Source: an uncultured Candidatus Saccharibacteria bacterium
GTDB lineage: Bacteria > Patescibacteriota > Minisyncoccia > Phycocordibacterales > UBA9973
DNA length: 64,000 nt
Direction of reading: 5' to 3'
Assembly: GCA_964544225.1 (NCBI GenBank)
Contig: CAZIZK010000002.1
Coordinates: 141,212 to 205,211, forward strand
How positions within the stretch are numbered: position 1 is the first letter of the stretch; every line of letters starts with the position of its first letter. Below the pieces are notes generated by a model. It was given only the letters and a program-made list of their open reading frames with translations. It made no database searches and was not told the origin of the DNA. Shown one piece after another: positions 5,687 to 18,044 of this stretch. Position numbers and translations under genes: made by a program.

Positions 5687-6598
5687 ATGATAGATACAAT
5701 ATTGAGCGCAGGTAAAAATATAGACAAGTCTGATGTGGTGATAGTAAGTGCCGGTTATGAAAAGACAGCAAGTAGCCGTAAAGGTACAGCAAAGGGCCCA
5801 AAGGCTGTTATGAAGATGCTCGATAGCAAGCTCGAGCTCTTTGACCGTAATTTCAAGAAGGAGGCTAGCAAATTTATCGGTATTGCAGCCAAAGACCTAG
5901 GTGATATCAGTAAATTAACTCCCGAAGGTGCATTGAAGAAGATCACGGCTGAATGCGACAAGATAGTGTCCAAAGGTAAGTTCGTATTGTTGCTAGGTGG
6001 TGAGCACTCTGTATCATTAGGCCTATTCCAATCCCTTGCGAAAGTTCACAACCCAAAAGATGTCACAATATTACAAATCGATGCGCACTGTGACCTACGC
6101 GATACTGACGCCGACTACAACCCAAAGCCTACAAAGTATGCGCACTCTTGTGTACTACACCGTGCCACTGACTTACAATACCCACTAGTTCAGGTAGGTA
6201 TCCGCACATATTCAATACACGAATACAAGTATTTCAGTGATCCAAAGAATAATATTACAGTATTTGAATGGGGTAACCCAGACAGTGCCCATGATGTATG
6301 GCAAGCACCAAGTATCGACGAGATACTAGCTTCAATAAAGACAAAGTATGTATATCTAACTATCGATGTAGACGGCTTTGACCCTGCATATATGCCTGGT
6401 ACAGGTACACCTGTCCAAGGGGGCCTAGAGTGGTGGTATGGTGTAGAATTGATCAATAGATTGATAAATGAAAAGGTATTGATAGGTGCCGACATTGTGG
6501 AAGTCTCCCCTATGAAGGATTCCGTCCTTACTGAATACGGCGCAGCCCAGCTAGCGTATAATATAATCACTAATAAGTTCCGAGACAAGTTGAAATAA
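5687..6598 (+). CDS. speB: agmatinase/arginase-family ureohydrolase (likely agmatinase)
   Basis: Mn-binding signature blocks LLLGGEHSVSLG, ILQIDAHCDLRD, LTIDVDGFDPAYMPGTGTPVQGGL. Confidence 0.8.
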   Translation: MIDTILSAGKNIDKSDVVIVSAGYEKTASSRKGTAKGPKAVMKMLDSKLELFDRNFKKEASKFIGIAAKDLGDISKLTPEGALKKITAECDKIVSKGKFVLLLGGEHSVSLGLFQSLAKVHNPKDVTILQIDAHCDLRDTDADYNPKPTKYAHSCVLHRATDLQYPLVQVGIRTYSIHEYKYFSDPKNNITVFEWGNPDSAHDVWQAPSIDEILASIKTKYVYLTIDVDGFDPAYMPGTGTPVQGGLEWWYGVELINRLINEKVLIGADIVEVSPMKDSVLTEYGAAQLAYNIITNKFRDKLK

Positions 6599-6653: not shown

Positions 6654-7202
6654 ATGAAAAAACTATACTTAGCTAAAAGGATACAAAAGAACCCGGATCC
6701 CAGATTTATACTTTCAGTAAATACAAACATGAGCTTGGAAAATGTAATCGAGGCATATGTTGAAAAAATTTATGTCACAAAAAGATACATTTATAATGGC
6801 CCGTGGGTACTAAGAGCACCATTCTATGAAAATGTTTTTGCTGAAAATAATATGCCCCCAGATTTAAAACCTATTAATGTGTGGGAAATGGTCAAACAAA
6901 AAATAGATTCTAGCGATATTTTTATAGGTATAATAAGTGGAAAATCTTATGGAACTATTGCAGAGGTTGGATATGCCTGTAACTCCACTAAAATTGCAGT
7001 ATATGTACTACCTGAAATAAATTTAAGTTATGATGAATTACAAGATTTGTGGTTTGTATTTCAAATGGCATTTAATACAGAAAATTTATGGTTAGATGAG
7101 GATATAAAAAATATAGAAGAATTTAATCATCTAAATATTTTTTCTATTAATGACTATAAATCGTATGTAAGTAAAATAATACCAAATTTTATGAAAAAAT
7201 AA
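6654..7202 (+). CDS. nucleoside 2-deoxyribosyltransferase-like (NDT/Rcl/YtoQ-type Rossmann-like) protein
   Basis: Motif SDIFIGIISGKSYGTIAEVGYACNSTKIAVYVL matches the D...G..sGTa.ElGyA...kpv core of the NDT family, with a conserved Glu in AEVGYA. Very AT-rich gene. Confidence 0.5.
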   Translation: MKKLYLAKRIQKNPDPRFILSVNTNMSLENVIEAYVEKIYVTKRYIYNGPWVLRAPFYENVFAENNMPPDLKPINVWEMVKQKIDSSDIFIGIISGKSYGTIAEVGYACNSTKIAVYVLPEINLSYDELQDLWFVFQMAFNTENLWLDEDIKNIEEFNHLNIFSINDYKSYVSKIIPNFMKK

Positions 7203-7207
7203 AAATC

Positions 7208-7248
7208 AATAAAAACCTTTCTTTTTAAAAAATTGAAAGGTTTTTTTA
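7208..7248. terminator. hairpin aaaaacctttc-N13-gaaaggttttttt between NDT-like and NUDIX genes
   Basis: Perfect 8-bp stem flanked by A-run and T-run. Confidence 0.5.
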
Positions 7249-7271
7249 TTTATGATACAATTACCTTTATA

Positions 7272-7685
7272 ATGAATATACGTATAAACTCTTTAGTTTT
7301 AATTTATAATAAAGAAAAAGTTTTGCTCCAGAAAGGATATGATCATTTTAAAAATATTATTTTTTATAGACCATTAGGAGGAGGTATCGAATTCGGAGAA
7401 AAAGCTGTAGAAGCAGTAAAAAGAGAGATCATGGAAGAAATTGGAGCTACCTTAATAAAGGAAAAATTCCTTACTGTTTTTGAAAATATATTTGAATTTA
7501 ATGGAAATAAATTTCATGAAATAACATTTTTATTTACTGCAGAATTAGCAGAAGAAGAGATGAATAAAAAGAAATTCTTACAAATTTTAGACAAGAAAGG
7601 AGCACAAGCAGAGTGGGTTCTACTATCAGATATAAAAAATGGAGTAGTAAAAATTTTACCAGAAAATTGTATCAATTTTATGTAA
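7272..7685 (+). CDS. NUDIX hydrolase
   Basis: Nudix box GGGIEFGEKAVEAVKREIMEEIGA (GX5EX7REUXEEXGU). The start at 7272 (MNIRINS) is preferred because the 7233 ATG lies inside the upstream hairpin. Confidence 0.8.
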   Translation: MNIRINSLVLIYNKEKVLLQKGYDHFKNIIFYRPLGGGIEFGEKAVEAVKREIMEEIGATLIKEKFLTVFENIFEFNGNKFHEITFLFTAELAEEEMNKKKFLQILDKKGAQAEWVLLSDIKNGVVKILPENCINFM

Positions 7686-7716
7686 AAATACTTAAATTTC
7701 ATTCAGAGTTGAAATT

Positions 7717-7748
7717 AAAAAACACTAGGTCTTGCCTAGTGTTTTTTA
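7717..7748. terminator. bidirectional terminator hairpin cactagg-tcttg-cctagtg with A/T runs
   Basis: Perfect 7-bp stem, A5 upstream and T6 downstream. Lies between the convergent NUDIX and DHS-like genes. Confidence 0.65.
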
Positions 7749-7761
7749 ATTGGTTAGAATT

Positions 7762-8781
7762 TTAGCCTAAATACTGTTGTATTAGTTTGTTAGCCTCGTC
7801 AGGATTTGCCTTCATTTCCAATAGTGCTGTGAGCATTAGTGGGGCTACTATTGTAGCGTCAGATTCCACCACGAACATTGGAGTCTCCTCGGTCAATTTA
7901 TCCCAAGTGATCTTCTCGTTTGGAGTTGCACCGGAATATGAACCATATGATGTTGTAGAGTCAGATATCTGGCAGAAGTATGCCCAAGGCTTTGCCTGTT
8001 GTTCCATATCGTATTTCAGTGATGGAACTACACATATCGGGAAGTCTCCAGCGATACCTCCACCGATCTGGAAGAATCCGATACCCTTGCCCTCGGACAA
8101 TGTCTGATACTGGTCATATAATGCACCCATGTACTCTACACCGCTCTTTGCGATAGTTGCACTACAGTCCCCCATCTTTACGTGTGAAGCAAAGATATTT
8201 CCAAAAGTAGAGTCCTCGTATCCTGGCACCACTATTGGCAAGTTTGCCTGTGCAGCTGCAAGTAGCCAGCATTCATCGGCCTTACCTTCATGATCCTCCT
8301 TGTCTATCTTCTGTATTAATTCGTAGAAATATTCATGCCAGAAACGTCTGTCGCCTTTTGCATCTGCGTCCTTCCACATTGGGACAATAAACTTCTCCAC
8401 CTTGCGGAAAGCCTCATCCTCGGGGATACTAGTGTCTGTAACACGGCGCATACGATCCTCCAATATCTTTGTATCATCTTCTTTTGTAAAGTAACGATAA
8501 TCTGGAAAGTCCTTGTAACTATCATGGGCAACAAGGCGGAAAAGTGATTCCTCCAGGTTCGCACCTGTTACAGACATACCGTGGATAAGGCCTGCGCGGA
8601 TTGCCGGTGCAAGAGTGATACCCATCTGTGCAGAAGACATAGCCCCAGCGACAGCCCAGAACATACGGCCCCCACCTTCTACGTGGCGCCAATACGCTAT
8701 CAATGCATCACGAGTAGCACGAGAGTTAAAGTTCTTATAATTCTTTAAAACAAATTCTAATGTTGGAAGATTTGGATTCAT
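7762..8781 (-). CDS. deoxyhypusine synthase-like protein (bacterial DHS/homospermidine-synthase-like family)
   Basis: MFWAVAGAMSSAQMGITLAPAIRAGLIHGMSVTGANLEESLF aligns with the eukaryotic DHS core [42 protein letters not shown]. Size 339 aa. Confidence 0.7.
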   Translation of the reverse strand: MNPNLPTLEFVLKNYKNFNSRATRDALIAYWRHVEGGGRMFWAVAGAMSSAQMGITLAPAIRAGLIHGMSVTGANLEESLFRLVAHDSYKDFPDYRYFTKEDDTKILEDRMRRVTDTSIPEDEAFRKVEKFIVPMWKDADAKGDRRFWHEYFYELIQKIDKEDHEGKADECWLLAAAQANLPIVVPGYEDSTFGNIFASHVKMGDCSATIAKSGVEYMGALYDQYQTLSEGKGIGFFQIGGGIAGDFPICVVPSLKYDMEQQAKPWAYFCQISDSTTSYGSYSGATPNEKITWDKLTEETPMFVVESDATIVAPLMLTALLEMKANPDEANKLIQQYLG

Positions 8782-8832
8782 AATTTTTAAACTATTAATT
8801 TTATAAATATAAAAACATTATAACATTTTTTA

Positions 8833-8953
8833 AAAATCAAGATATTGCTGTAGATACAAGGCGACGATGAGCATTGCGACCAAAATGTAGACATCTACAT
8901 TGCGGAAGCAAGAGGAGTCGTCAACGCAGTAGGTATAGTAATATCTTGATTTT
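8833..8953 (-). ncRNA. structured intergenic element between speA and the DHS-like gene (candidate regulatory RNA or attenuator)
   Basis: 14-bp perfect outer inverted repeat (aaaatcaagatatt / aatatcttgatttt) enclosing about 90 nt that contain the palindrome atgtagacatctacat and repeated cattgcg motifs. The 176-nt intergenic gap is unusually long for this genome. Confidence 0.35.
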
Positions 8954-8957
8954 TATT

Positions 8958-10340
8958 TTACCAGCCAAAATTCTTGCCCACTTCGTCGGCTGTCTCACGT
9001 TTACGAGCAATAACAATGTGGCCGTTCTCCACTATCAACTTCAATGGTGAAGACAACATGCAGTGGTGTGCTGCTAGTGGGTCTTGGTATGCACCTGTGT
9101 CGAACACGGCTATGTACATCGGGTCGCCACCTTCACTGGAATCATAATCTGGTAATGTTACAGCGCCATCTACGCCTGTATATATGTCGTCACTATCACA
9201 AGATGAACCAGCGAGCCATACATCATTTAACTCGCCATCACGTTTGTTGTTTACTGGTGCCAATGCCCACTTCTGGCCAATAGCCCAAGTGTCTAGCAAG
9301 TCGTTCATAAAGCTTCCGTCTATTACGTACCACTTTTTTGCAGGAGCCTTTTTATTATTTATCGGCTTTGTATCGATAACTTTAAATACAGTTATCTGGG
9401 CAGGGGCTACAATATAGCGACCCCATTCGCAAATCAGGTTTGGGTGCGCAACTCCACGCTTGTCGGCCTCGTCCCTCATTAATTTCAATATCTTATCCAT
9501 TAATTTATCCACTGGATAGCTCTTGTTCCTTGTATACGGTATTGGCATACCACCACCAATGTCGAGTGTGTCGAGTGATGGATTAATCTCCTTTAGTTTA
9601 AAGAATACATCCAGAGCGTATTTAATAGGGCCTAGTACGTCAGACAATTTCTCTATCTGTGAACCTATATGATAATGTAATATTTTTAGATTTTTAAATT
9701 TACCCATTTCCAATATCTCCTTTGCGCCGAACCCAAAACGGTCGATGGGCTTGTTCCAGTACGAATCAGCCTTTACTGGCATGTCTAGGCGTATACCCAC
9801 ATCGTATTTAGAATGCTGTAGGAACTTCAATTCATTTGGCCCTTCGATAAGTGGAAATATCTTCACACCTTTGTGTTGTAGGTCGTCGATGAGGTTTATG
9901 TATTTGTCAGTTTTAGGGCCCGAGCAAAGTATGCGAATATCTGGGTTGAACTTCTCTTGTTCCAACATCTTCTTTATTAGGTACAGATCATTGAAAGATG
10001 AAGTTTCGAGGTGGGCACCCTCACCCACGATACTCATAACAATTTCCTTATTCTGGTTCACCTTCATCGGGTAATGGTAGAAGAACTTGCCTTTGTAGCC
10101 CACCTTCTTTGAAAGTGATGCTGTTAGGTCTAGGAAGTCCTCCAGCCTCTCCTCCACCACGAATGGCAAAAGAATCTCCAGTGATGTACCGAACTTCTCT
10201 GCAAGATATCGAACGTTATAAATATTGTGCCCTTCTTTGATTATCAAGTCACCCTCCTTGCTGTAATCAAAATATTGAGTATTGAACTCGGTAGCCCCAA
10301 GCTTCCAAAGTTTCTTAGAAGCTACTGATTTTTTGGTCAT
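8958..10340 (-). CDS. speA: biosynthetic arginine decarboxylase, SpeA-type (PLP fold-III decarboxylase), short form
   Basis: YPMKVNQ (SpeA-type PIKVNQ PLP-lysine motif rather than the ODC/LysA YAVKxN), YHIGSQ, LDIGGGMPIPY, EWGRYIVAPA, SSCDSDD substrate-loop Cys. 460 aa. Confidence 0.75.
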   Translation of the reverse strand: MTKKSVASKKLWKLGATEFNTQYFDYSKEGDLIIKEGHNIYNVRYLAEKFGTSLEILLPFVVEERLEDFLDLTASLSKKVGYKGKFFYHYPMKVNQNKEIVMSIVGEGAHLETSSFNDLYLIKKMLEQEKFNPDIRILCSGPKTDKYINLIDDLQHKGVKIFPLIEGPNELKFLQHSKYDVGIRLDMPVKADSYWNKPIDRFGFGAKEILEMGKFKNLKILHYHIGSQIEKLSDVLGPIKYALDVFFKLKEINPSLDTLDIGGGMPIPYTRNKSYPVDKLMDKILKLMRDEADKRGVAHPNLICEWGRYIVAPAQITVFKVIDTKPINNKKAPAKKWYVIDGSFMNDLLDTWAIGQKWALAPVNNKRDGELNDVWLAGSSCDSDDIYTGVDGAVTLPDYDSSEGGDPMYIAVFDTGAYQDPLAAHHCMLSSPLKLIVENGHIVIARKRETADEVGKNFGW

Positions 10341-10418
10341 TTCATATAAGCAAGCCTACTGCTCGCACTAAACGAATAATAAAGTAATAATAGCAGAAAT
10401 GAAGGATATGTAAATAGT

Positions 10419-11252
10419 TTAGATATTCTTACCAACAAGGAATCCCTCTGAACCCTTTTTGTTGCAATTATGAGCAAAAACAATCAATCCATCCTTTGAA
10501 GCTTTCACAACCTTGCATCCATCAAGAGCTACAATTTGACCTTTTTTTATTTTTTCGAAATCTTTAAATTTCTTTTTTAAAACAAATGAATCTGTCTTTG
10601 TGTGGTAAATAGAGGTCATTTTAATATTCTCTCTTGCAACTTTTATACTTTTTTTAGATTCTATATGACCTTGAGCTTGCAAGAAAGACTGTATTGCATT
10701 AAATGCATTTTTTATAGACTTTTTATCATTATGCTGACCACACTCGACACAAATACCTACCTTACCTATATCATTCATATAACCCTCGGTTCCACCGGGT
10801 TCAATAGTATTAAAATTGTATAACACTCTTTTGAAATCTTTTGGAAATGAATTGATTATTTTATTTGCATTTTTCTCACAAATTATAAAGGGTGCATTTT
10901 TGTGGGTTGTGGAATGTATATCCAACAATGCATCGGCTTTGTTTAACAATTTCTTTATGAACAATGACCTCTTGTACTCATATGATGATTTTATGTTCTT
11001 AGTATATTTATTATCTCTACTGAATAATCTATTTAAGTTAACTTCAGTAAATCTCTTTTTTTGTTCTATTGCTTTTGGATTACCAAAAATAAATACAACC
11101 TTACCTTTTTGTATTTCTAAGTTTGGTAAAATTAATTTAAAAGCTTCAACTCCACAGCCTTCGTCACCATGAGTGCCTGCCATAATAACACTTACTTTAC
11201 CTGGTTTTATTCCTTTTTTCTCTATTACTTCTTCCATGCATATAAAATACAT
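10419..11252 (-). CDS. succinylglutamate desuccinylase/aspartoacylase (AstE/AspA) family Zn-dependent deacylase
   Basis: N-terminal MAGTHGDEGCG matches the family GTHGNE zinc-binding motif. Size 277 aa. Confidence 0.6.
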   Translation of the reverse strand: MYFICMEEVIEKKGIKPGKVSVIMAGTHGDEGCGVEAFKLILPNLEIQKGKVVFIFGNPKAIEQKKRFTEVNLNRLFSRDNKYTKNIKSSYEYKRSLFIKKLLNKADALLDIHSTTHKNAPFIICEKNANKIINSFPKDFKRVLYNFNTIEPGGTEGYMNDIGKVGICVECGQHNDKKSIKNAFNAIQSFLQAQGHIESKKSIKVARENIKMTSIYHTKTDSFVLKKKFKDFEKIKKGQIVALDGCKVVKASKDGLIVFAHNCNKKGSEGFLVGKNI

Positions 11253-11332
11253 TAAATAAATTTTATATGCAAATAAAAAAGGCCCGTGCTGTATATACAG
11301 TCGGTGCCCTTTTTCAAAATATTGTTTGTTTA

Positions 11333-12565
11333 CTAATCAGCTTTGATTAGCTCACGAGCTTCATCCAACATATTGAATGCATGCTCGTGTGAAAGAAAAG
11401 AGATAGCGGTCAGGTCCACAGAACCATGCCTTATGATTCCTGGATTTGTAACGAGTACAAAACCACTCTTTTTTGGCACGAGGCGTTTACCCAACAACAC
11501 CTGAAGTTCTGCAAAAGATGATACCTTTGCGTGGCTGGTGTGCTGATGCCGAACAAAGTGAGGCTTGCCCTCCATTTCTTTATTCTTCAGATACCGGTTT
11601 ACAGCATCATAGATGAACAGGATCGCACCTTTGCGTGGATTCAGGTCACTCCAATAGAAGTGTCCATCATTGCAAACAAGGATATCACAACACATAAAGC
11701 CAAGGCCTCCGCGTTTTGCAATACACTCGGTCAGCATTTTGTACTCTACAAAAATACTGTCCAACAAATCGTTTGGGATTTTTGTGGGAAAAATTGTTCC
11801 CACATAGCTAACATTCTCAGCCAGCTGCTCAAAACAATTCAGGAACTTTACGTTTCCATTAAAATCAATTTCCCAATGCATGGAGATTTCCATTGCCACG
11901 GGGATAAGCTTTTCAATAATGTACTCATCTTTGAGTGCATCATATTCAGCTTTTGATTTTATCGGGACTATTGTTCCGAGGCCTGCACCACCGGTACCAT
12001 ACACATGCTTTGCGATGTACCCATTTTGGCTTTCGCCAAGCATTAATACAACATCTTCCCACTCTACTCCACCGTGTGTTTTATCAACATACGGTAATGC
12101 AGAAATTCCGGCTTGCTTGCAAAGCTCCTTGAAATTTGATTTCCTTTGGAACTCATTTGCAAACTCGAAATTGATATAGGAAGGCATCTTTAACTCTTCA
12201 GCCAAGCGCTGTTCCTTTACCGACGGAGTAAAAAACTCCAGTCGTACATCATACCCATTTACCGCTTTCAGCAGACTTGATTTAACCTCATTTTTGTTCA
12301 AGATTAATTCAGAAAGGATCTGATTTTGCTCAAAAGGCCCAGCGGTTAGTAAAGTTGGGATACTGAAACCAAGATGCTTCCAGTATTTAACATAATCAGA
12401 ATCAATAGGGTTCGTTGTTATTACAACATCACCTGATTTACCCTGACTAAGGGCTGCTCTTTGATCGAAATCTTGTTCAGATTCCAACCCTAAGAAATGT
12501 GGATTACTTTGGCTATCAATGATAACTCTTCGTACCCTTGCTGCTTCAACCGATTCTCTTTTCAT
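11333..12565 (-). CDS. ATP-grasp family ligase (amide/peptide ligase-like)
   Basis: C-terminal ATP-grasp hallmark CDILVCNDGHFYWSDLNPRKGA (D.l...dG..y.lE/DlNprpG) and a Gly-rich loop GTGGAGLG. 410 aa, N-terminal pre-ATP-grasp-like region. Confidence 0.6.
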   Translation of the reverse strand: MKRESVEAARVRRVIIDSQSNPHFLGLESEQDFDQRAALSQGKSGDVVITTNPIDSDYVKYWKHLGFSIPTLLTAGPFEQNQILSELILNKNEVKSSLLKAVNGYDVRLEFFTPSVKEQRLAEELKMPSYINFEFANEFQRKSNFKELCKQAGISALPYVDKTHGGVEWEDVVLMLGESQNGYIAKHVYGTGGAGLGTIVPIKSKAEYDALKDEYIIEKLIPVAMEISMHWEIDFNGNVKFLNCFEQLAENVSYVGTIFPTKIPNDLLDSIFVEYKMLTECIAKRGGLGFMCCDILVCNDGHFYWSDLNPRKGAILFIYDAVNRYLKNKEMEGKPHFVRHQHTSHAKVSSFAELQVLLGKRLVPKKSGFVLVTNPGIIRHGSVDLTAISFLSHEHAFNMLDEARELIKAD

Positions 12566-12676
12566 TTTGCTATTATTTTATTTTAAACATAATATACAAC
12601 ATTTTACAAAAAATGCAATACCTACATAAAAATAACCCCACCAAATGGCAGGGTTATAAATTTGTTTTAATAAGTC

Positions 12677-12985
12677 TCAAATTGGGATTATTTTTATATC
12701 CCACTCCCAGCCATTTAGCCGGTATTGAGTTTTTGATACAATTTTTTGATCTGGAAATTTTTGTTCTATCAACCCAATAGCAATATTTACTATAGGTTGG
12801 TATTTAAAACTTTCCTCTTGAATAATTCTATCATTCAATCTTCGGATCACTATCTTTGGAGTAATTCCATCCGAAGCGATTCTCTGCTCCGCAATAAAAT
12901 TTTTACCCAATCTCCTTTGAACATAAAGTGAGATAATTGGTAAAACTTCAGGTAGTATGGACTTTATGTTTTGTGTCTTTTCCAT
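12677..12985 (-). CDS. hypothetical small protein (102 aa)
   Basis: ORF only. AT-rich region between the ATP-grasp gene and dnaJ. No motif recognised. Confidence 0.3.
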   Translation of the reverse strand: MEKTQNIKSILPEVLPIISLYVQRRLGKNFIAEQRIASDGITPKIVIRRLNDRIIQEESFKYQPIVNIAIGLIEQKFPDQKIVSKTQYRLNGWEWDIKIIPI

Positions 12986-12996
12986 ATTCTTAGAGT

Positions 12997-13254
12997 TTAA
13001 AGGATTTTTACAGTTAGTTCATTTGTGTTGTTGAAAATGAAATCAAATTTATTGGAACTGAATTCAAATGAAATCTTTTCCTTTAATTCTTTTACCACTT
13101 CTGCTGATAGTGCCAATTGAACATTGGGATTACGGATAACAATACTATCCAATTCCAGAGATATAATCTCCAATGAAAAATGTGATCTCCTCCATACTAT
13201 TTCCTGCACTTTAGACAGAAAATTGTGATCTACTTGAGTTACTACTCTACTCAT
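12997..13254 (-). CDS. hypothetical small protein (85 aa)
   Basis: ORF only. Adjacent to the 102-aa ORF on the same strand. Confidence 0.3.
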   Translation of the reverse strand: MSRVVTQVDHNFLSKVQEIVWRRSHFSLEIISLELDSIVIRNPNVQLALSAEVVKELKEKISFEFSSNKFDFIFNNTNELTVKIL

Positions 13255-13321
13255 AATATTACGTTTTTATTTTTCAACACAATAACACAAAAAGTGATTT
13301 TACGCAACAATACTAAAACAA

Positions 13322-13375
13322 AAATACATAGGACGGTCCTATGTATTTCCCAGATAGTTACCAGGTAACTATCTG
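13322..13375 (-). terminator. dnaJ terminator: two tandem perfect hairpins followed by a T-run on the minus strand
   Basis: cagatagttacc-agg-taactatctg (10-bp stem) and aaatacatagga-cg-gtcctatgtattt (12-bp stem) with T-run. Confidence 0.65.
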
Positions 13376-14476
13376 TTAGATTCCCTCTTCTTTTAGCTTC
13401 TCGATTAGTTCGCGGGACTTTTTATTTAGTTTGTTTGGCATCTTGATCTGGATACGTAGGATAATGTCACCACGATTTCGTCCACCTTGTGGCACACCCT
13501 TGCCACGCACTCGTAGTAGTTCGCCATGACCGATACCTTCGGGGATTGTTACTTCGAGCTTACCATCCAGTGTTGTAAGCTCGTATTTCATGCCTAGGAG
13601 CGCTTCTGAGAGCTTTATAGGTAGATCCATAGTTAGGTTGGCACCATCACGTTTGAAAGTACTGTGGGGCTTTACATTGATCTTGATATACAAGTCACCA
13701 CTTTGGCCACCCTTTACCGCCTCGCCCATTGCTGTCATGCGGATCATTTCGCCATTGTTTATACCTGCTGGGATCTTGATATCTATCTCAGACTGTTTGC
13801 GGGCTACACCTGCACCACGACATTCGGTACACTTTTCTTCAGGAATTTTTCCAGCACCTTCACATTTGCTACACTCTACAACTGTCTGGAATGTGCCAAG
13901 CATGGAGCGCTTCATCTCGCGGACTTTACCCTGACCATTACATGCCGTACAAGTGTTTGTCTTTGTACCTTTCTTTGCACCAGATCCACTACAGATGTCG
14001 CACTGTGATTGCTTTGTGATTAGTACCTTCCTCTCTACGCCGAATACTGAATCCTCGAAGCTAATATCTATCTCAGTAGAAATGTCGCGTCCACGGCGTG
14101 ACTGTGCACGGCCACGGCCCATACCTCCGCCGAAAAAGTCACCAAATATATCACCAAGGTCACCCATGTCGAACTCTACTCCGCTACCATTTTGGAATCC
14201 TGAAAAGTCGAATCCGCCAAATCCTCCGCCTTGGCCACCACCGTATCCACCACCGAAGCCTTGTGGGCCGTCGGCTGAACCAAACTGATCATAGCTTGAA
14301 CGCTTCTTGTCATCAGAAAGAACCTGGTAGGCTTCGTTGACCTCCTTGAATTTACTATCGTCACCTTTATTTTTATCTGGGTGGTATTTATGAGCAAGTT
14401 TATGAAAAGCCTTCTTTATCTCATCCTTACTTGCCCCCTTATTTACCCCCAATGTTTCGTAGTAATCTTTCGCCAT
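13376..14476 (-). CDS. dnaJ: chaperone DnaJ
   Basis: J-domain with HPD (YHPDKN), G/F-rich linker, four CxxCxGxG zinc-finger repeats, C-terminal domain. Confidence 0.95.
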
Positions 14477-14498
14477 AGTATTTTTATACTATCACAAA

Positions 14499-16391
14499 TT
14501 ATTTCTGCTCACCACTCTCATTAGTTTCTGCATCCTTGATCTCTTCTGATTGAGGTTCAGCTGTAGTGCCGGCCTCTGGAGTGGCACCTGCCTTGCTCAT
14601 AGCTTCACCAATTTTTGACATCTCGGCTGACAATTCCTCGGCGGATTTCTTGATAGCGTCTATGTCTGTGCCATCCTTTGCAGTGCGAAGTGCTGTGATC
14701 TTTTCCTCTACACTTGCCTTCAAAGTTGCATCTACCTTATCGCCGTATTCCTTTATAGACTTCTCGGCAGAGAATATCATCATCTCGGCAGTATTCTTCT
14801 CATCCACTAGGGCCTTCTTCTTTGCGTCTTCTTCGGCATGTAGCTCGGCATCCTGTTGCATCTTCTTTATATCCTCGTCTGTTAGGCCTGAACCTGCTTC
14901 GATACGGATACTCTGTTCCTTGCCACTTGCTTTATCCTTTGCCTTTACATTCAATATTCCGTTCGCATCTACGTCGAAAGTAACCTCTACCTGTGGCATA
15001 CCACGTGGTGCTGGAGGAATACCGTCCAGAATAAATCGGCCTAGAGATTTGTTGTCAGTTGCCATTGGGCGCTCACCCTGAGTGATGTGTATTTCTACAC
15101 TTGTCTGATTGTCGGCAGCAGTAGAGAATGTTTGTGATTTGGAACTTGGGATAGTTGTATTACGCTCTATCAACTTTGTAGCGACACCTCCAAGAGTCTC
15201 GATACCGAGTGATAGTGGTATAACATCGAGCAACAATACATCCTTTACATCACCTTGCAATACACCTGCCTGCACGGCTGCACCTAGGGCTACAACTTCA
15301 TCTGGGTTGATAGAACGGTTTGGTTCCTTGCCACCGAACAATGCTTTTACCGCTTCGATTATGGCTGGCATACGAGTCTGTCCACCAACGAGGATCACTT
15401 CATTGATCTCATTCATCTTGAAAGGTGAAGCTTCCATCGCGCGCTTTGTAATAGCGATCGACTGTTCGATATATTCAGAAGCTAGAGATTCTAATTGTGC
15501 ACGAGACATCTTCTCCACCAAGTGCTCGGGGCCGTTGGCACCACTTGTGATAAATGGAATATTTATTTCAGTTTCAGGAGTTGTAGAAAGTTCGATCTTT
15601 GCCTTTTCTGCAGCTTCATCCAGACGCTGGATAGCAAGAGGGTCCTTACTGATATCAATACCGGTCTTCTTCTTGAACTCGTCTGCAAGCCAGCTTATTA
15701 TCTTCTGATCGATATCGCGGCCTCCCATATGAGAGTCTCCATCTGTAGACTTTACTTCAATAACGTCGCCTGACACTTCTAGAACTGACACATCGAAAGT
15801 TCCACCCCCAAAGTCGTAGACAACTATCTTTTCATCTTTTTTTGTATTGAAGCCGTATGCAAGGGCTGCTGCTGTAGGCTCATTAATAATCCTCTTTACA
15901 TCCAACCCTGCGATAGCACCTGCATCCTTTGTGGCTTTACGTTGTGAGTCGTTGAAGTATGCTGGAACTGTAATGATAGCCTCGGTTACCTTCTCGCCCA
16001 ATTTTGCCTCTACATCGGCCTTTATCTTTGCTAGTATCATTGCAGATATTTCCTCGGGGCGTGACCACTTGTCACCAATGTTTACTTCTGCTCCACCGTC
16101 TGTACCTGCTTGGATCTTGAAAGGAGCGGTCTTTTGAGTCTTCTGGATTTCTGGATCCTCAAATCGGTGACCCATGAAGCGCTTTATACCGTAGATAGTG
16201 TTGGCAGGGTTTGTAACAGCCTGACGCTTTGCGAGCAAGCCTACAAGCCTGTCACCATTCTTACCCACAGCAACGATAGATGGAGTTGTACGTCCACCTT
16301 CGATATTCTCGATTATCTTTGGCTGACCACCTTCAATGATAGCCACCGCACTGTTTGTTGTACCCAAATCTATACCAATTATTTTACTCAT
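14499..16391 (-). CDS. dnaK: chaperone DnaK (Hsp70)
   Basis: [18 protein letters not shown], full-length Hsp70 with acidic C-terminal tail. Confidence 0.97.
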
Positions 16392-16458
16392 ATGTTTTTA
16401 TATATTAATTAATAATAATTTCTAATTTGTAAATCAATTATATACTCACTTTTACTTT

Positions 16459-16496
16459 TTGACAAGTATTTAGCGACCGCTGAATACTTGTATATC
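16459..16496. promoter_or_regulatory. TTGACA -35-like hexamer overlapping a 28-bp near-perfect palindrome (candidate operator) in the dnaK / regulator divergent intergenic region
   Basis: ttgaca at 16459-16464. caagtatt-TAGCGACCGCTG-aatacttg at 16463-16490 (8-bp perfect arms, spacer itself partly palindromic gcgaccgc). Confidence 0.45.
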
Positions 16497-16522
16497 GATA
16501 ATATACATGATAATATATTTTT

Positions 16523-17035
16523 ATGTCAAGTAAAAAGGACTATTCGAAGAAAATCATAAATATATTGGCGAAAAAGCCAGCCGTAGCTATAAATGACATA
16601 GTGGGTAATGACGCCGGCAAGTCCAAATATGCCATTATTCGCTCCATAAAAGGCCTACAGGAGGCTGGATTGGTAGAACAGGTATCTTCAGGTCAGAACG
16701 ATTATGCCCGCCTTACAAAGCAAGGCAAGAAAAAGGCCCTCAGTATCCGCCTAGATAGCACAGATAGCCTCAGTACCAACTGGGATGGCAAATGGCGCAT
16801 AATACTCCTAGACCTGCCCGAGAGTCGCAAGAACGAACGCGAGAGCCTTCGCTACCTACTAAAAAAAGCAGGGTTCACCTGCATGAAGAATTCTGCTTGG
16901 ATATCCCCTTACCCATTCGAACACATGTTCTACAATATTAAAAAGGATCTGAGTCTCACCACTGAAATGATGATCATCGTCACCGACAACCTCGACCCCG
17001 AAACAGAGAACGCATTTCTAAATTTACATAAATAA
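16523..17035 (+). CDS. putative transcriptional regulator: N-terminal winged-HTH plus C-terminal Cas2-like/PaaX-C-like domain
   Basis: N-terminal about 60 aa HTH-like (KKPAVAINDIVGNDAGKSKYAIIRSIKGLQEAGLV). C-terminal WRIILLDLPESRKNERESLRYLLKKAGFTCMKNSAWIS follows the Cas2 beta-alpha-beta pattern (hhhhhD..., RR.K..K.L...G, RvQ.SVf). Divergent from dnaK. Confidence 0.5.
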   Translation: MSSKKDYSKKIINILAKKPAVAINDIVGNDAGKSKYAIIRSIKGLQEAGLVEQVSSGQNDYARLTKQGKKKALSIRLDSTDSLSTNWDGKWRIILLDLPESRKNERESLRYLLKKAGFTCMKNSAWISPYPFEHMFYNIKKDLSLTTEMMIIVTDNLDPETENAFLNLHK

Positions 17036-17058
17036 AAACACCCATTGGGTGTTTTTAT
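17033..17058. terminator. bidirectional terminator acaccca-t-tgggtgt with flanking A/T runs
   Basis: Perfect 7-bp stem between convergent genes. Confidence 0.6.
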
Positions 17059-18044
17059 TTATGTTTATGATTACGCCGGAAAGCACGATCTAAGCTTTTT
17101 ATATCTTCAAATTTTTTCTCTAGATATGGTTCGATGATCTTGTGTGCATCATACTCTATAGAACCGGGTTTGTTATATTCTTTTAATTGTGATTTTATAA
17201 AACTGTGCTCTTTAGATGTTACAACATCACCAGCAATTCTTAAACCATCTTGAATCATTTGCAAAGTAGAGCCAACAGGATGTTCATCAAATTGTTTAGC
17301 ATGAGCCCATTCAGCAACTAAATCTCTTAATTGGAAATGTCCACCCAAGCTTTTATAATCTTGTGCATTTATAAAAACAGTATGTGTAAAAGAATTATAA
17401 TGAGCTACTTTATTATCATTGGAAATCAAAAAATCTCGGTTTTTACCGAAAGTCCAATCTATTTTAGGAGACCCACATTCTTTTTCCACCTCCCACAACT
17501 TTTTATAAATAGTGTCATTGTATTCATACTTTTTAGGATAGTATCTACTTAATGATCTTTCAAAATATTTCAAAGTTTCCTGTTCATTTTCCAATTCTTG
17601 TTTTTTATCATTTATCTTATCTAATTTTGATAAAAATTTAACTAATTCCTGTTTATTAAAATTTATAAAATTTTCTGGAAGTGTTAATTTACTATCACCT
17701 TGCGAAGACCAACCAATAATATATTCTTTGAAAAAATGCATTTGTTCTTCTTCACTAAGAGAATCCAAACCTCCTAAATAATTCAATATATGGGTAGTTT
17801 GCTTGTCTGAGTGTGTATATACCTCTTTACCATCAACATTTGAAGCTTCTATTGTATTATTATGGGTAGCTTGATAATCAGCTATCAAACCAATAGTTAT
17901 GATAGTTGCCACTTGTCGTGTCCTCTTTAAGAATTTTAAAGCTTTTTCTTTAACCTGCTCTAAAGTAGACTTTTTTTCAGGAGTCTTTGGTTCTTCAGTG
18001 GTATTTACCGGTTCTGGATTTGTTTGTTTATTTATTCCCTCCAT
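17055..18044 (-). CDS. hypothetical protein (329 aa), Lys/Glu-rich, inserted between grpE and the dnaK regulator
   Basis: ORF only. N-terminal region with a probable TM (VATIITIGLIA). No motif recognised. Confidence 0.45.
   Translation of the reverse strand: MEGINKQTNPEPVNTTEEPKTPEKKSTLEQVKEKALKFLKRTRQVATIITIGLIADYQATHNNTIEASNVDGKEVYTHSDKQTTHILNYLGGLDSLSEEEQMHFFKEYIIGWSSQGDSKLTLPENFINFNKQELVKFLSKLDKINDKKQELENEQETLKYFERSLSRYYPKKYEYNDTIYKKLWEVEKECGSPKIDWTFGKNRDFLISNDNKVAHYNSFTHTVFINAQDYKSLGGHFQLRDLVAEWAHAKQFDEHPVGSTLQMIQDGLRIAGDVVTSKEHSFIKSQLKEYNKPGSIEYDAHKIIEPYLEKKFEDIKSLDRAFRRNHKHK

Follow-up and report, generated by a model that had tools for sequence, protein, structure and literature searches.

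A putative ATP-grasp ligase and AstE-like hydrolase module in the arginine-family metabolism of Patescibacteria

In the window analysed here, a stretch of 64,000 nucleotides of DNA from an uncultured Candidatus Saccharibacteria bacterium, two adjacent genes of the minus strand encode an ATP-grasp protein, predicted to act as a carboxylate-amine ligase, and a hydrolase of the AstE/AspA family. We propose that the two work as a ligase/hydrolase module on a small-molecule amide of arginine-family metabolism, a reading to which we give about an even chance of being right. The two genes are these:

11333-12565, minus strand: predicted ATP-grasp carboxylate-amine ligase, 410 amino acids (aa), with pre-ATP-grasp and ATP-grasp domains, of the BesA/PGM1 structural clade
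10419-11252, minus strand: AstE/AspA-family zinc amidohydrolase, 277 aa, a candidate N-acyl-amino-acid or dipeptide deacylase

Patescibacteria have a minimal metabolism and depend on their hosts for amino acids, and a conserved, ATP-consuming enzyme whose gene adjoins arginine genes is likely to matter to their physiology. In the literature searched we found no description of this ligase family, or of a module that joins an ATP-grasp enzyme to an AstE-like one in Patescibacteria. The component superfamilies are well known, and so is the pairing of a ligase with a hydrolase as a design. The novelty lies in a subfamily of BesA/PGM1-type ligases that is linked to arginine, occurs in nature fused to arginine deiminase and stands in two alternative kinds of cassette. 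No member of the family has been characterised, and its nearest solved relatives are 15-19% identical to it.

The ligase and the hydrolase

Both reading frames lie on the minus strand where an initial annotation, made from the letters of the DNA, had placed them, and the motifs that it quoted are present: MCCDILVCNDGHFYWSDLNPRKGA and GTGGAGLG in the 410-aa protein, AGTHGDEGCG in the 277-aa protein. Profile searches of the two proteins, a check proposed at that stage, place the PreATP-grasp and AstE_AspA domains above their cut-offs, and the catalytic models of the ATP-grasp superfamily below theirs. For the ligase, PF18604 (PreATP-grasp) scores 31.8 bits for a cut-off of 27.5, while PF02222 (19.9 bits, cut-off 27) and PF02655 (18.6 bits, cut-off 23.2) are both sub-threshold, and sequence matches to entries of the PDB are marginal (E ≥ 0.05). 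Because no curated model of the catalytic domain reaches its cut-off, membership of the superfamily rests on the fold together with the motifs. The AlphaFold2 (AF2) model (predicted local distance difference test, pLDDT, 92.9; predicted template-modelling score, pTM, 0.90) has an unambiguous ATP-grasp fold, made of pre-ATP-grasp, RAGNYA and kinase-like domains, so that the early assignment of the protein to this superfamily holds.

The catalytic residues are intact. Across an alignment of 22 sequences of the ligase family K142, K146, K186, G190, G192, G193, E218, D294, D307, R311 and K312 are invariant, and N309 is nearly so. K186 ends a strand of the model (183-187) that is followed by the Gly-rich loop 190-GTGGAGLG-197, D294 stands in the middle of a strand (289-298), and D307-x-N309 ends another (303-309). 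The hallmarks of ATP-grasp enzymes comprise a lysine in the linker, a lysine that ends the second strand of RAGNYA, a flexible Gly-rich loop, a mid-strand aspartate and a metal motif of the ExN type (PMC4431377); the conserved residues of the ligase match them, the assignment being made by position and not by superposition.

Comparison of folds puts three structures clearly ahead of other ATP-grasp families: BesA, the L-propargylglycine--L-glutamate ligase of Streptomyces cattleya (PDB 8YI6), which is 19% identical to the ligase; PGM1, the peptide ligase of pheganomycin synthesis (PDB 3WVQ/3WVR); and 8YND, deposited as 'ATP-grasp peptide ligase from Streptomyces', the last two at 15-18% identity. 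The likeness has its limits. BesA is an enzyme of actinomycete secondary metabolism, whereas the present ligase is encoded in a reduced genome in the company of arginine and polyamine genes, with a dedicated hydrolase adjoining it. The PGM1_C domain PF18105 was not detected in the ligase (Pfam, E ≤ 0.1), unlike PGM1, although a distant homologue of the ligase, P0071, has it; nor do the ligase loci hold a conserved gene for a precursor peptide. The L-amino-acid ligases LdmS/SAOUHSC_02373, BL00235, RizA and BacD may be set beside it for further comparison. RimK, LysX and ArgX share with it the superfamily and the chemistry of an acyl-phosphate, but RimK and LysX are distant in fold, and the ligase has neither a RimK-type sequence or fold nor a conserved substrate with an acidic C-terminus encoded nearby. 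ArgX and LysX act in arginine and lysine metabolism, where they are followed by an M20 hydrolase (LysK). Judged by its model, the 410-aa protein is thus probably a carboxylate-amine ligase that acts on small molecules or peptides, and not a protein tagger of the RimK kind.

The 277-aa protein had been placed in the AstE/AspA family, and both its sequence and its fold bear this out. PF24827 (AstE_AspA_cat) matches with E = 9e-23 and 81.3 bits (cut-off 25) over model positions 2-189 of 192, and the nearest solved structures to the AF2 model (pLDDT 94.4) are those of AstE, with template-modelling (TM) scores of 0.77-0.80, followed by DoeB, CphZ (TM 0.69) and ASPA. PF04952, the family of the C-terminal barrel-sandwich hybrid domain, is matched weakly in sequence (14.9 bits, cut-off 25); the model nonetheless has an all-beta C-terminal domain (208-276), and it aligns with the AstE structures over about 300 columns. 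In alignments of 32 and 39 sequences there is no variation in the zinc triad (H28/E31/H113), the carboxylate clamp (R67/N74/R75) or the general base (E170), and these residues line up with the HGxE and DxH motifs found in ASPA/ACY3. The equivalent residues of CphZ are H50/E53/H179, R102/N112/R113 and E251 (PMC9974463).

The hydrolase therefore shares with AstE, ASPA and ACY3 the same catalytic domain, zinc triad, Arg/Asn-Arg clamp and catalytic glutamate. It is shorter, at 277 aa against 313-350 for AstE and ASPA, and it falls far under the equivalog cut-offs, with 72.6 against 180 for aspartoacylase (PRK02259) and 46.1 against 305.65 for astE (TIGR03242). On these scores it is a member of the family but orthologous to neither AstE nor aspartoacylase. 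AstE itself belongs to arginine catabolism, but the window has no other gene of the arginine succinyltransferase (AST) pathway.

Members of the family cleave N-succinyl-glutamate and N-acetyl-aspartate, and the structural match to DoeB adds N-acetyl-diaminobutyrate (N-acetyl-DABA) to the range. CphZ, which frees arginine from beta-Asp-Arg, shows that the family also includes dipeptidases that release arginine (PMC9974463). The bond cut by all characterised members joins an acyl group to the alpha-amine of an amino acid with a free carboxylate, the class of bond found in the product of a BesA-type ligase. That an amide might be built by one of the two enzymes and cut by the other, as the initial annotation had it, is chemically coherent.

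Conservation of the pair and its arginine context

The ligase family is rare, and almost restricted to Patescibacteria in the sequence collections searched. Homologues form 21 clusters among 5.8 billion (34-96% identity), and a profile search of 1.84 billion representatives gave 53 matches at E ≤ 1e-30. The hydrolase has at least 408 homologue clusters; both genes are conserved, and neither is a chance reading frame. We gathered 48 ligase loci, which fall into 37 groups at 90% ligase identity and which a neighbour-joining tree divides into two clades.

In the clade of the window the ligase is without exception followed by the AstE-like gene as its next neighbour downstream, in six non-redundant lineages (the window with loci L025 and L053; L021 with L026-28; L030; L001/2; L003/5; L031) whose ligases go down to 46% identity, with a gap between the two genes of roughly 65-85 nucleotides (nt). 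The order is kept within three different sets of flanking genes: dnaK-dnaJ on the 5' side with an arginine-decarboxylase-like gene (ADC) on the 3' side; a gene for arginyl-tRNA synthetase (ArgRS) on the 3' side; and an M1 peptidase on the 5' side with a TrpR-like gene on the 3' side. The co-occurrence of the pair in other genomes, which had been anticipated from the window, is therefore found.

Hydrolases accompany the other clade too. A distant AstE subfamily (26-37% identity) is present in five loci of this sister clade (L009, L035, L041, L042, L045), and in L041 it stands where ten other loci have an M20 peptidase. A strict mutual exclusion of AstE and M20 was considered and rejected, as L009 carries both. 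Taking as informative the loci with at least four visible neighbours, which leaves 29 groups, an AstE, M20 or S66 hydrolase lies within five genes of the ligase in 27, and P0106, a distant homologue of the ligase, is fused to an alpha/beta-hydrolase. The association of ligase and hydrolase across genomes is real.

The neighbourhood of the ligase family is that of arginine metabolism, so that the early view of the two genes as 'not part of any canonical pathway' has to be revised. ArgRS is found within five genes of the ligase in 17 of the 37 groups, and ArgG, ArgH, an acetyltransferase like N-acetylglutamate synthase (NAGS) and an ArgE-like deacetylase recur near its loci. In the clade of the window ADC adjoins the ligase/AstE pair. 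Two loci from planctomycete metagenome-assembled genomes (L019:9288-10400 and L024:1527-2639) have the ligase followed directly by an AstA-like gene, of the arginine N-succinyltransferase family, with a NAGS-like gene upstream; both loci lie outside Patescibacteria.

In a sister lineage the ligase is joined in frame to arginine deiminase, giving a protein of 796-799 aa with a full-length arginine-deiminase-like domain, found on different contigs in L029 (8001-10391) and L034 (reading frame of 799 aa). The protein, P0024, stands for a cluster of three members, the ligase part being its N-terminal 400 aa. The gene before it encodes an S66 LD-carboxypeptidase, a kind of gene found in four ligase loci.

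The ligase is thus surrounded by enzymes of arginine metabolism that add acyl groups, take them off or modify the guanidino group; from this company, one of its substrates is probably arginine or something closely related (ornithine, citrulline, glutamate).

The usual order in the sister clade is ArgRS, a ThrC-like pyridoxal-phosphate (PLP) enzyme (PALP), the ligase, an epimerase of the enolase superfamily (MR_MLE) and a PepT-like M20 peptidase. The run from PALP to M20 is present in 15 of the 37 groups, with overlaps of 4 nt between PALP and ligase genes. Cassettes of this clade stand in L004, L008, L011-L016, L023, L035 and L037-L041 (for example L013:4025-11580). Genes of the NAGS-like and ArgE-like types and ArgG/ArgH lie near such cassettes. 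The best match of the cassette epimerase is the Thermotoga-type L-Ala-D/L-Glu epimerase (6.7e-44); its family carries 'DLT' where dipeptide epimerases carry a DxD motif. Some loci have peculiarities of their own: a BtpA-family gene lies 3' of the epimerase in L009 and L035, L041 holds a second ligase paralogue, and L004 includes a gene for S-adenosylmethionine (AdoMet) decarboxylase.

This cassette brings to mind a stereo-inversion, in which the ligase would make an L,L-dipeptide, the epimerase flip its C-terminal residue and the peptidase set it free, either to supply D-amino acids for the cell wall or to salvage D- into L-forms. For the sister clade such a route is plausible. The gene order with its overlaps, the kinship of the epimerase, the PepT-like nature of the peptidase and the S66 LD-carboxypeptidases all fit it, and the coupling of an ATP-grasp ligase to a dipeptide epimerase works in an engineered system (PMC13338154). 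The window would then show a pared-down form of the route whose epimerase gene lies elsewhere, and this we hold to be very unlikely: there is no MR_MLE or PALP gene in the window or adjoining any ligase of its clade, the epimerase family has 'DLT' in place of the DxD motif, and the route leaves unexplained both the fusion to arginine deiminase and the linkage with ArgG/ArgH. The fusion on the one hand, and the recurrent cassette of ligase, epimerase and peptidase beside ArgRS on the other, are leads to the function of the family.

What the pair might do

If the two genes do form a module, the ligase would work in the manner of BesA and PGM1, ATP phosphorylating a carboxylate and an amine attacking the acyl-phosphate. 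This would yield a dipeptide-like compound or an N-acyl-amino acid, its alpha-carboxylate left free beside the new amide. Of the two partners, one would most likely be arginine itself or a closely related compound (ornithine, citrulline or the precursor glutamate), arginine acting either as the acyl donor or as the amine. We infer that the AstE-like enzyme would cut a bond of this class in the ligase product, freeing the amino acid, which would feed ArgRS and the polyamine branch encoded next door, from arginine decarboxylase to agmatinase and a homospermidine-synthase-like enzyme. The compound might serve as a small reserve or as a buffer, much like the dipeptides of cyanophycin; alternatively, the amide could be a transient protecting group, as in the chemistry of BesA or in those routes of arginine metabolism that run through N-acetyl or N-succinyl compounds.

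Among the systems that we compared, the closest analogy for making and breaking an arginine-containing amide is CphZ with cyanophycin synthetase. CphZ frees arginine from an isopeptide built by a synthetase that contains an ATP-grasp domain, and arginine genes are found in linkage with its own (PMC9974463). The analogy is one of fold family on the side of the hydrolase, with differences on both sides. No match in sequence to CphZ was found at E ≤ 0.01, and equivalents of D222/E223 of AbCphZ, which belong to its guanidinium pocket, were not identified; the conserved acidic residues E151 and D/E156 of the hydrolase sit in a motif shared with ACY3, and are not diagnostic for that pocket. AotO belongs to the same comparison as CphZ. 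The ligase is not CphA-like, and no polymer is implied.

Several observations weigh against joining the two enzymes in one module. AstE-like homologues are some 20 times commoner than the ligase, with at least 408 clusters at E ≤ 1e-10 (more than 120 of them at ≥ 47% identity) against 21. Orthologues of the AstE-like gene occur without the ligase in L054 and L055, beside agmatinase, EamA and a deoxyhypusine/homospermidine-synthase-like gene (DHS), in an order (histidine kinase, EamA, agmatinase, DHS, CysRS) that matches the window. They occur without it again in L049-L052, beside a GNAT acetyltransferase and a TrpR-like gene, and near histidine-utilisation (hut) genes (urocanase, histidine ammonia-lyase) or HisRS. 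As these orthologues do without the ligase, the substrate of the AstE-like enzyme must also arise independently of it, and is perhaps made elsewhere through a GNAT. Furthermore, a ligase and a hydrolase acting on one bond make a futile cycle, unless they are regulated or an intervening step separates them. No gene for such a step was found in the 64-kb window, where PALP, MR_MLE, M20, ArgRS, ArgG/ArgH and arginine deiminase (ADI) were sought; tblastn with these and with NAGS-like, ArgE-like, AstA-like and S66 queries likewise returned none. Co-transcription of the two genes is suggested solely by the gap of 80 nt between them and the lack of a terminator-like site within it. Finally, the arginine context is due in part to related genomes with a common gene order.

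These facts invite the view that the two genes are independent neighbours, the AstE-like protein being a general N-acyl-amino-acid deacylase of a patescibacterial arginine/polyamine locus, beside which a ligase with an unrelated substrate was inserted. The abundance of AstE-like clusters, the syntenic loci L054 and L055 and the orthologues that pair with a GNAT and a TrpR-like gene all speak for it. So does composition: the AstE-like gene has a GC content of 0.299 (0.245 at third codon positions, GC3), against 0.414 for the ligase and 0.427 for the ADC-like gene, and it diverges faster than both neighbours, its product being 79% identical to that of L053, where theirs are 92-94% identical. Against independence stand the order of ligase and AstE, kept in six lineages down to 46% identity and within three sets of flanks, the recruitment of a separate AstE subfamily into sister-clade cassettes, and a metallohydrolase near almost every ligase locus; on balance we find it unlikely.

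As to composition, recent horizontal acquisition of the AT-rich hydrolase gene was considered and rejected, since the offset in GC below the ligase recurs in every locus examined (nine besides the window); the AT-richness and fast divergence of the gene suggest a weaker constraint rather than a recent transfer.

Downstream of the pair and just beyond lie genes of polyamine synthesis and an EamA transporter gene:

8958-10340, minus strand: arginine-decarboxylase-like (ADC) PLP enzyme, 460 aa (PF02784 and PF00278)
7762-8781, minus strand: deoxyhypusine/homospermidine-synthase-like (DHS) gene, 339 aa (PF01916, 6e-36)
5687-6598, plus strand: arginase/agmatinase-family gene, 303 aa (PF00491, 9e-61)
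5592-4681, minus strand: EamA transporter gene

The ADC-like gene is downstream of the hydrolase and co-oriented with it, its start codon (10340) lying 78 nt beyond the hydrolase stop, and it occupies a matching position in L021, L026, L027 and L053. The best NCBIfam matches of its product are the speA/PRK05354 models, with scores under their cut-offs; for the DHS-like protein the homospermidine and deoxyhypusine synthase models are both under cut-off as well.

The ligase might accordingly acylate, or aminoacylate, agmatine, putrescine or homospermidine, with the deacylase reversing the reaction for the control or storage of polyamines. Besides the three neighbouring genes and the recurrence of this arrangement in L021, L026 and L053, the AdoMet decarboxylase of cassette L004 would fit, and there is a precedent in the ATP-grasp enzyme HsvC, which couples L-valine to amidinospermidine (PMC6187163). 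AstE-like orthologues keep company with agmatinase and DHS even where the ligase is missing, which lends some support to such a role for the deacylase and not for the ligase family overall. The invariant clamp R67/N74/R75 argues otherwise, as in AstE, ASPA and CphZ it binds a free alpha-carboxylate beside the scissile amide, and an acyl-polyamine has none. The pair also stands in L003/L005 and L031, where polyamine genes are lacking, and across the family it is ArgRS, ArgG/ArgH and NAGS-like genes that dominate. We consider a polyamine conjugate decidedly improbable.

Returning to an amide of the arginine family, a bolder form of the proposal, which is rather doubtful, would make the ligase family the core of an unrecognised arginine pathway of Patescibacteria. 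An arginine-containing dipeptide or isopeptide would be formed at the expense of ATP, a kind of 'monomeric cyanophycin' built like beta-Asp-Arg or gamma-Glu-Arg, or else Arg-Glu/Asp. It would serve as a reserve of arginine or nitrogen, or as a protected intermediate for the fused arginine deiminase, the ThrC-like PLP enzyme and the enolase-type epimerase; release of the product would then fall to an AstE-like or M20 hydrolase. In the window this pathway would come down to its smallest form, two genes that supply arginine to ArgRS and to polyamine synthesis. Identifying the product would give the BesA/PGM1 clade a new reaction, and could show how Patescibacteria store, protect or stereo-invert amino acids of the arginine family.

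Small reading frames and the surrounding DNA

On the coding strand two small open reading frames (ORFs) precede the ligase, in DNA of 31-33% GC. The features from dnaK to the ligase are these:

16391-14499, minus strand: dnaK
14476-13376, minus strand: dnaJ
13320-13350, minus strand: terminator-like hairpin after dnaJ, the upstream edge of a variable cassette
12997-13254, minus strand: 85-aa ORF, the first gene of this cassette, outside the ligase/hydrolase module
12677-12985, minus strand: 102-aa ORF, within the same strain-variable cassette of small ORFs, outside the module
12632-12657, minus strand: terminator-like hairpin of 11 pairs (5 GC) with a T-run, between the small ORFs and the ligase
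12580-12609, minus strand: promoter-like site TTGTAA-18-TAAAAT, 5' of the ligase start codon, from a consensus scan only

The small ORFs had first been thought possible substrates or partners of the pair, and one could imagine a reversible tagging of peptides or proteins, with the 85- and 102-aa products as substrates or carriers in the logic of RimK and LysW. Their place immediately upstream of the ligase favours this, as does the presence of PGM1 among the three nearest structures, PGM1 being an enzyme that couples an acid to ribosomal peptides at their N-terminus. Their distribution tells otherwise.

In three strains whose ligases are about 92-96% identical (those of the window, L025 and L053), DNA that is about 83-92% identical flanks the slot of the small ORFs on both sides (window 12656-13265, minus strand; L025:1-430; L053:912-1700). 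Homology with L053 ends at 13265, just past the hairpin of dnaJ, and restarts at 12656, at the hairpin on the ligase side. Within the slot the window has its 85- and 102-aa ORFs, L025 an ORF like the 85-aa one with an unrelated one of 120 aa, and L053 one of 110 aa with an unrelated one of 134 aa. The 3' end of the 85-aa ORF is conserved in L025; its likeness to the 110-aa ORF of L053 is faint and N-terminal (21% identity, E 1.4). The 102-aa ORF has one near-identical copy in another sample. None of the five small ORFs matches Pfam, NCBIfam or PHROG, tblastn with the 102- and 85-aa ORFs gave no match in 24 ligase-bearing loci, and where the ligase is 55-60% identical dnaJ lies directly upstream with no ORF in between.

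The small ORFs form a separate unit between two terminator-like hairpins (13350-13320 and 12657-12632), the second of which is conserved in L025 and is followed by the promoter-like site of the ligase, and neither of their products ends in acidic residues, unlike LysW or S6. They are a strain-variable cassette, neither conserved substrates nor partners of the module. As tagging substrates they were rejected, being variable and without family match, with RimK and LysX distant in structure from the ligase; the tagging of proteins by this pair is, in our opinion, extremely improbable.

The promoter-like site falls in DNA conserved with L025 and L053, but it is weak, the frequency of such sites being that expected from shuffled sequence. 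A search of window positions 7000-17000 with Rfam gave no riboswitch or leader RNA, just two sub-threshold chance matches.

Some features of the surrounding DNA deserve a word. Between the agmatinase and DHS-like genes, positions 6654-7685 (plus strand) are an inserted, very AT-rich stretch (GC 0.25-0.28, GC3 0.17-0.21) with a 182-aa ORF, which has weak matches of the DUF4062 and nucleoside 2-deoxyribosyltransferase-like kinds, and an ORF for a NUDIX hydrolase. Divergent from dnaK and upstream of it, at 16523-17035 (plus strand), a 170-aa ORF has the central (Cas2-like) domain of PaaX and may be a transcriptional regulator. Beyond it, at 17055-18044 (minus strand), a 329-aa ORF with no Pfam match is another compositional outlier (GC 0.30, GC3 0.20).

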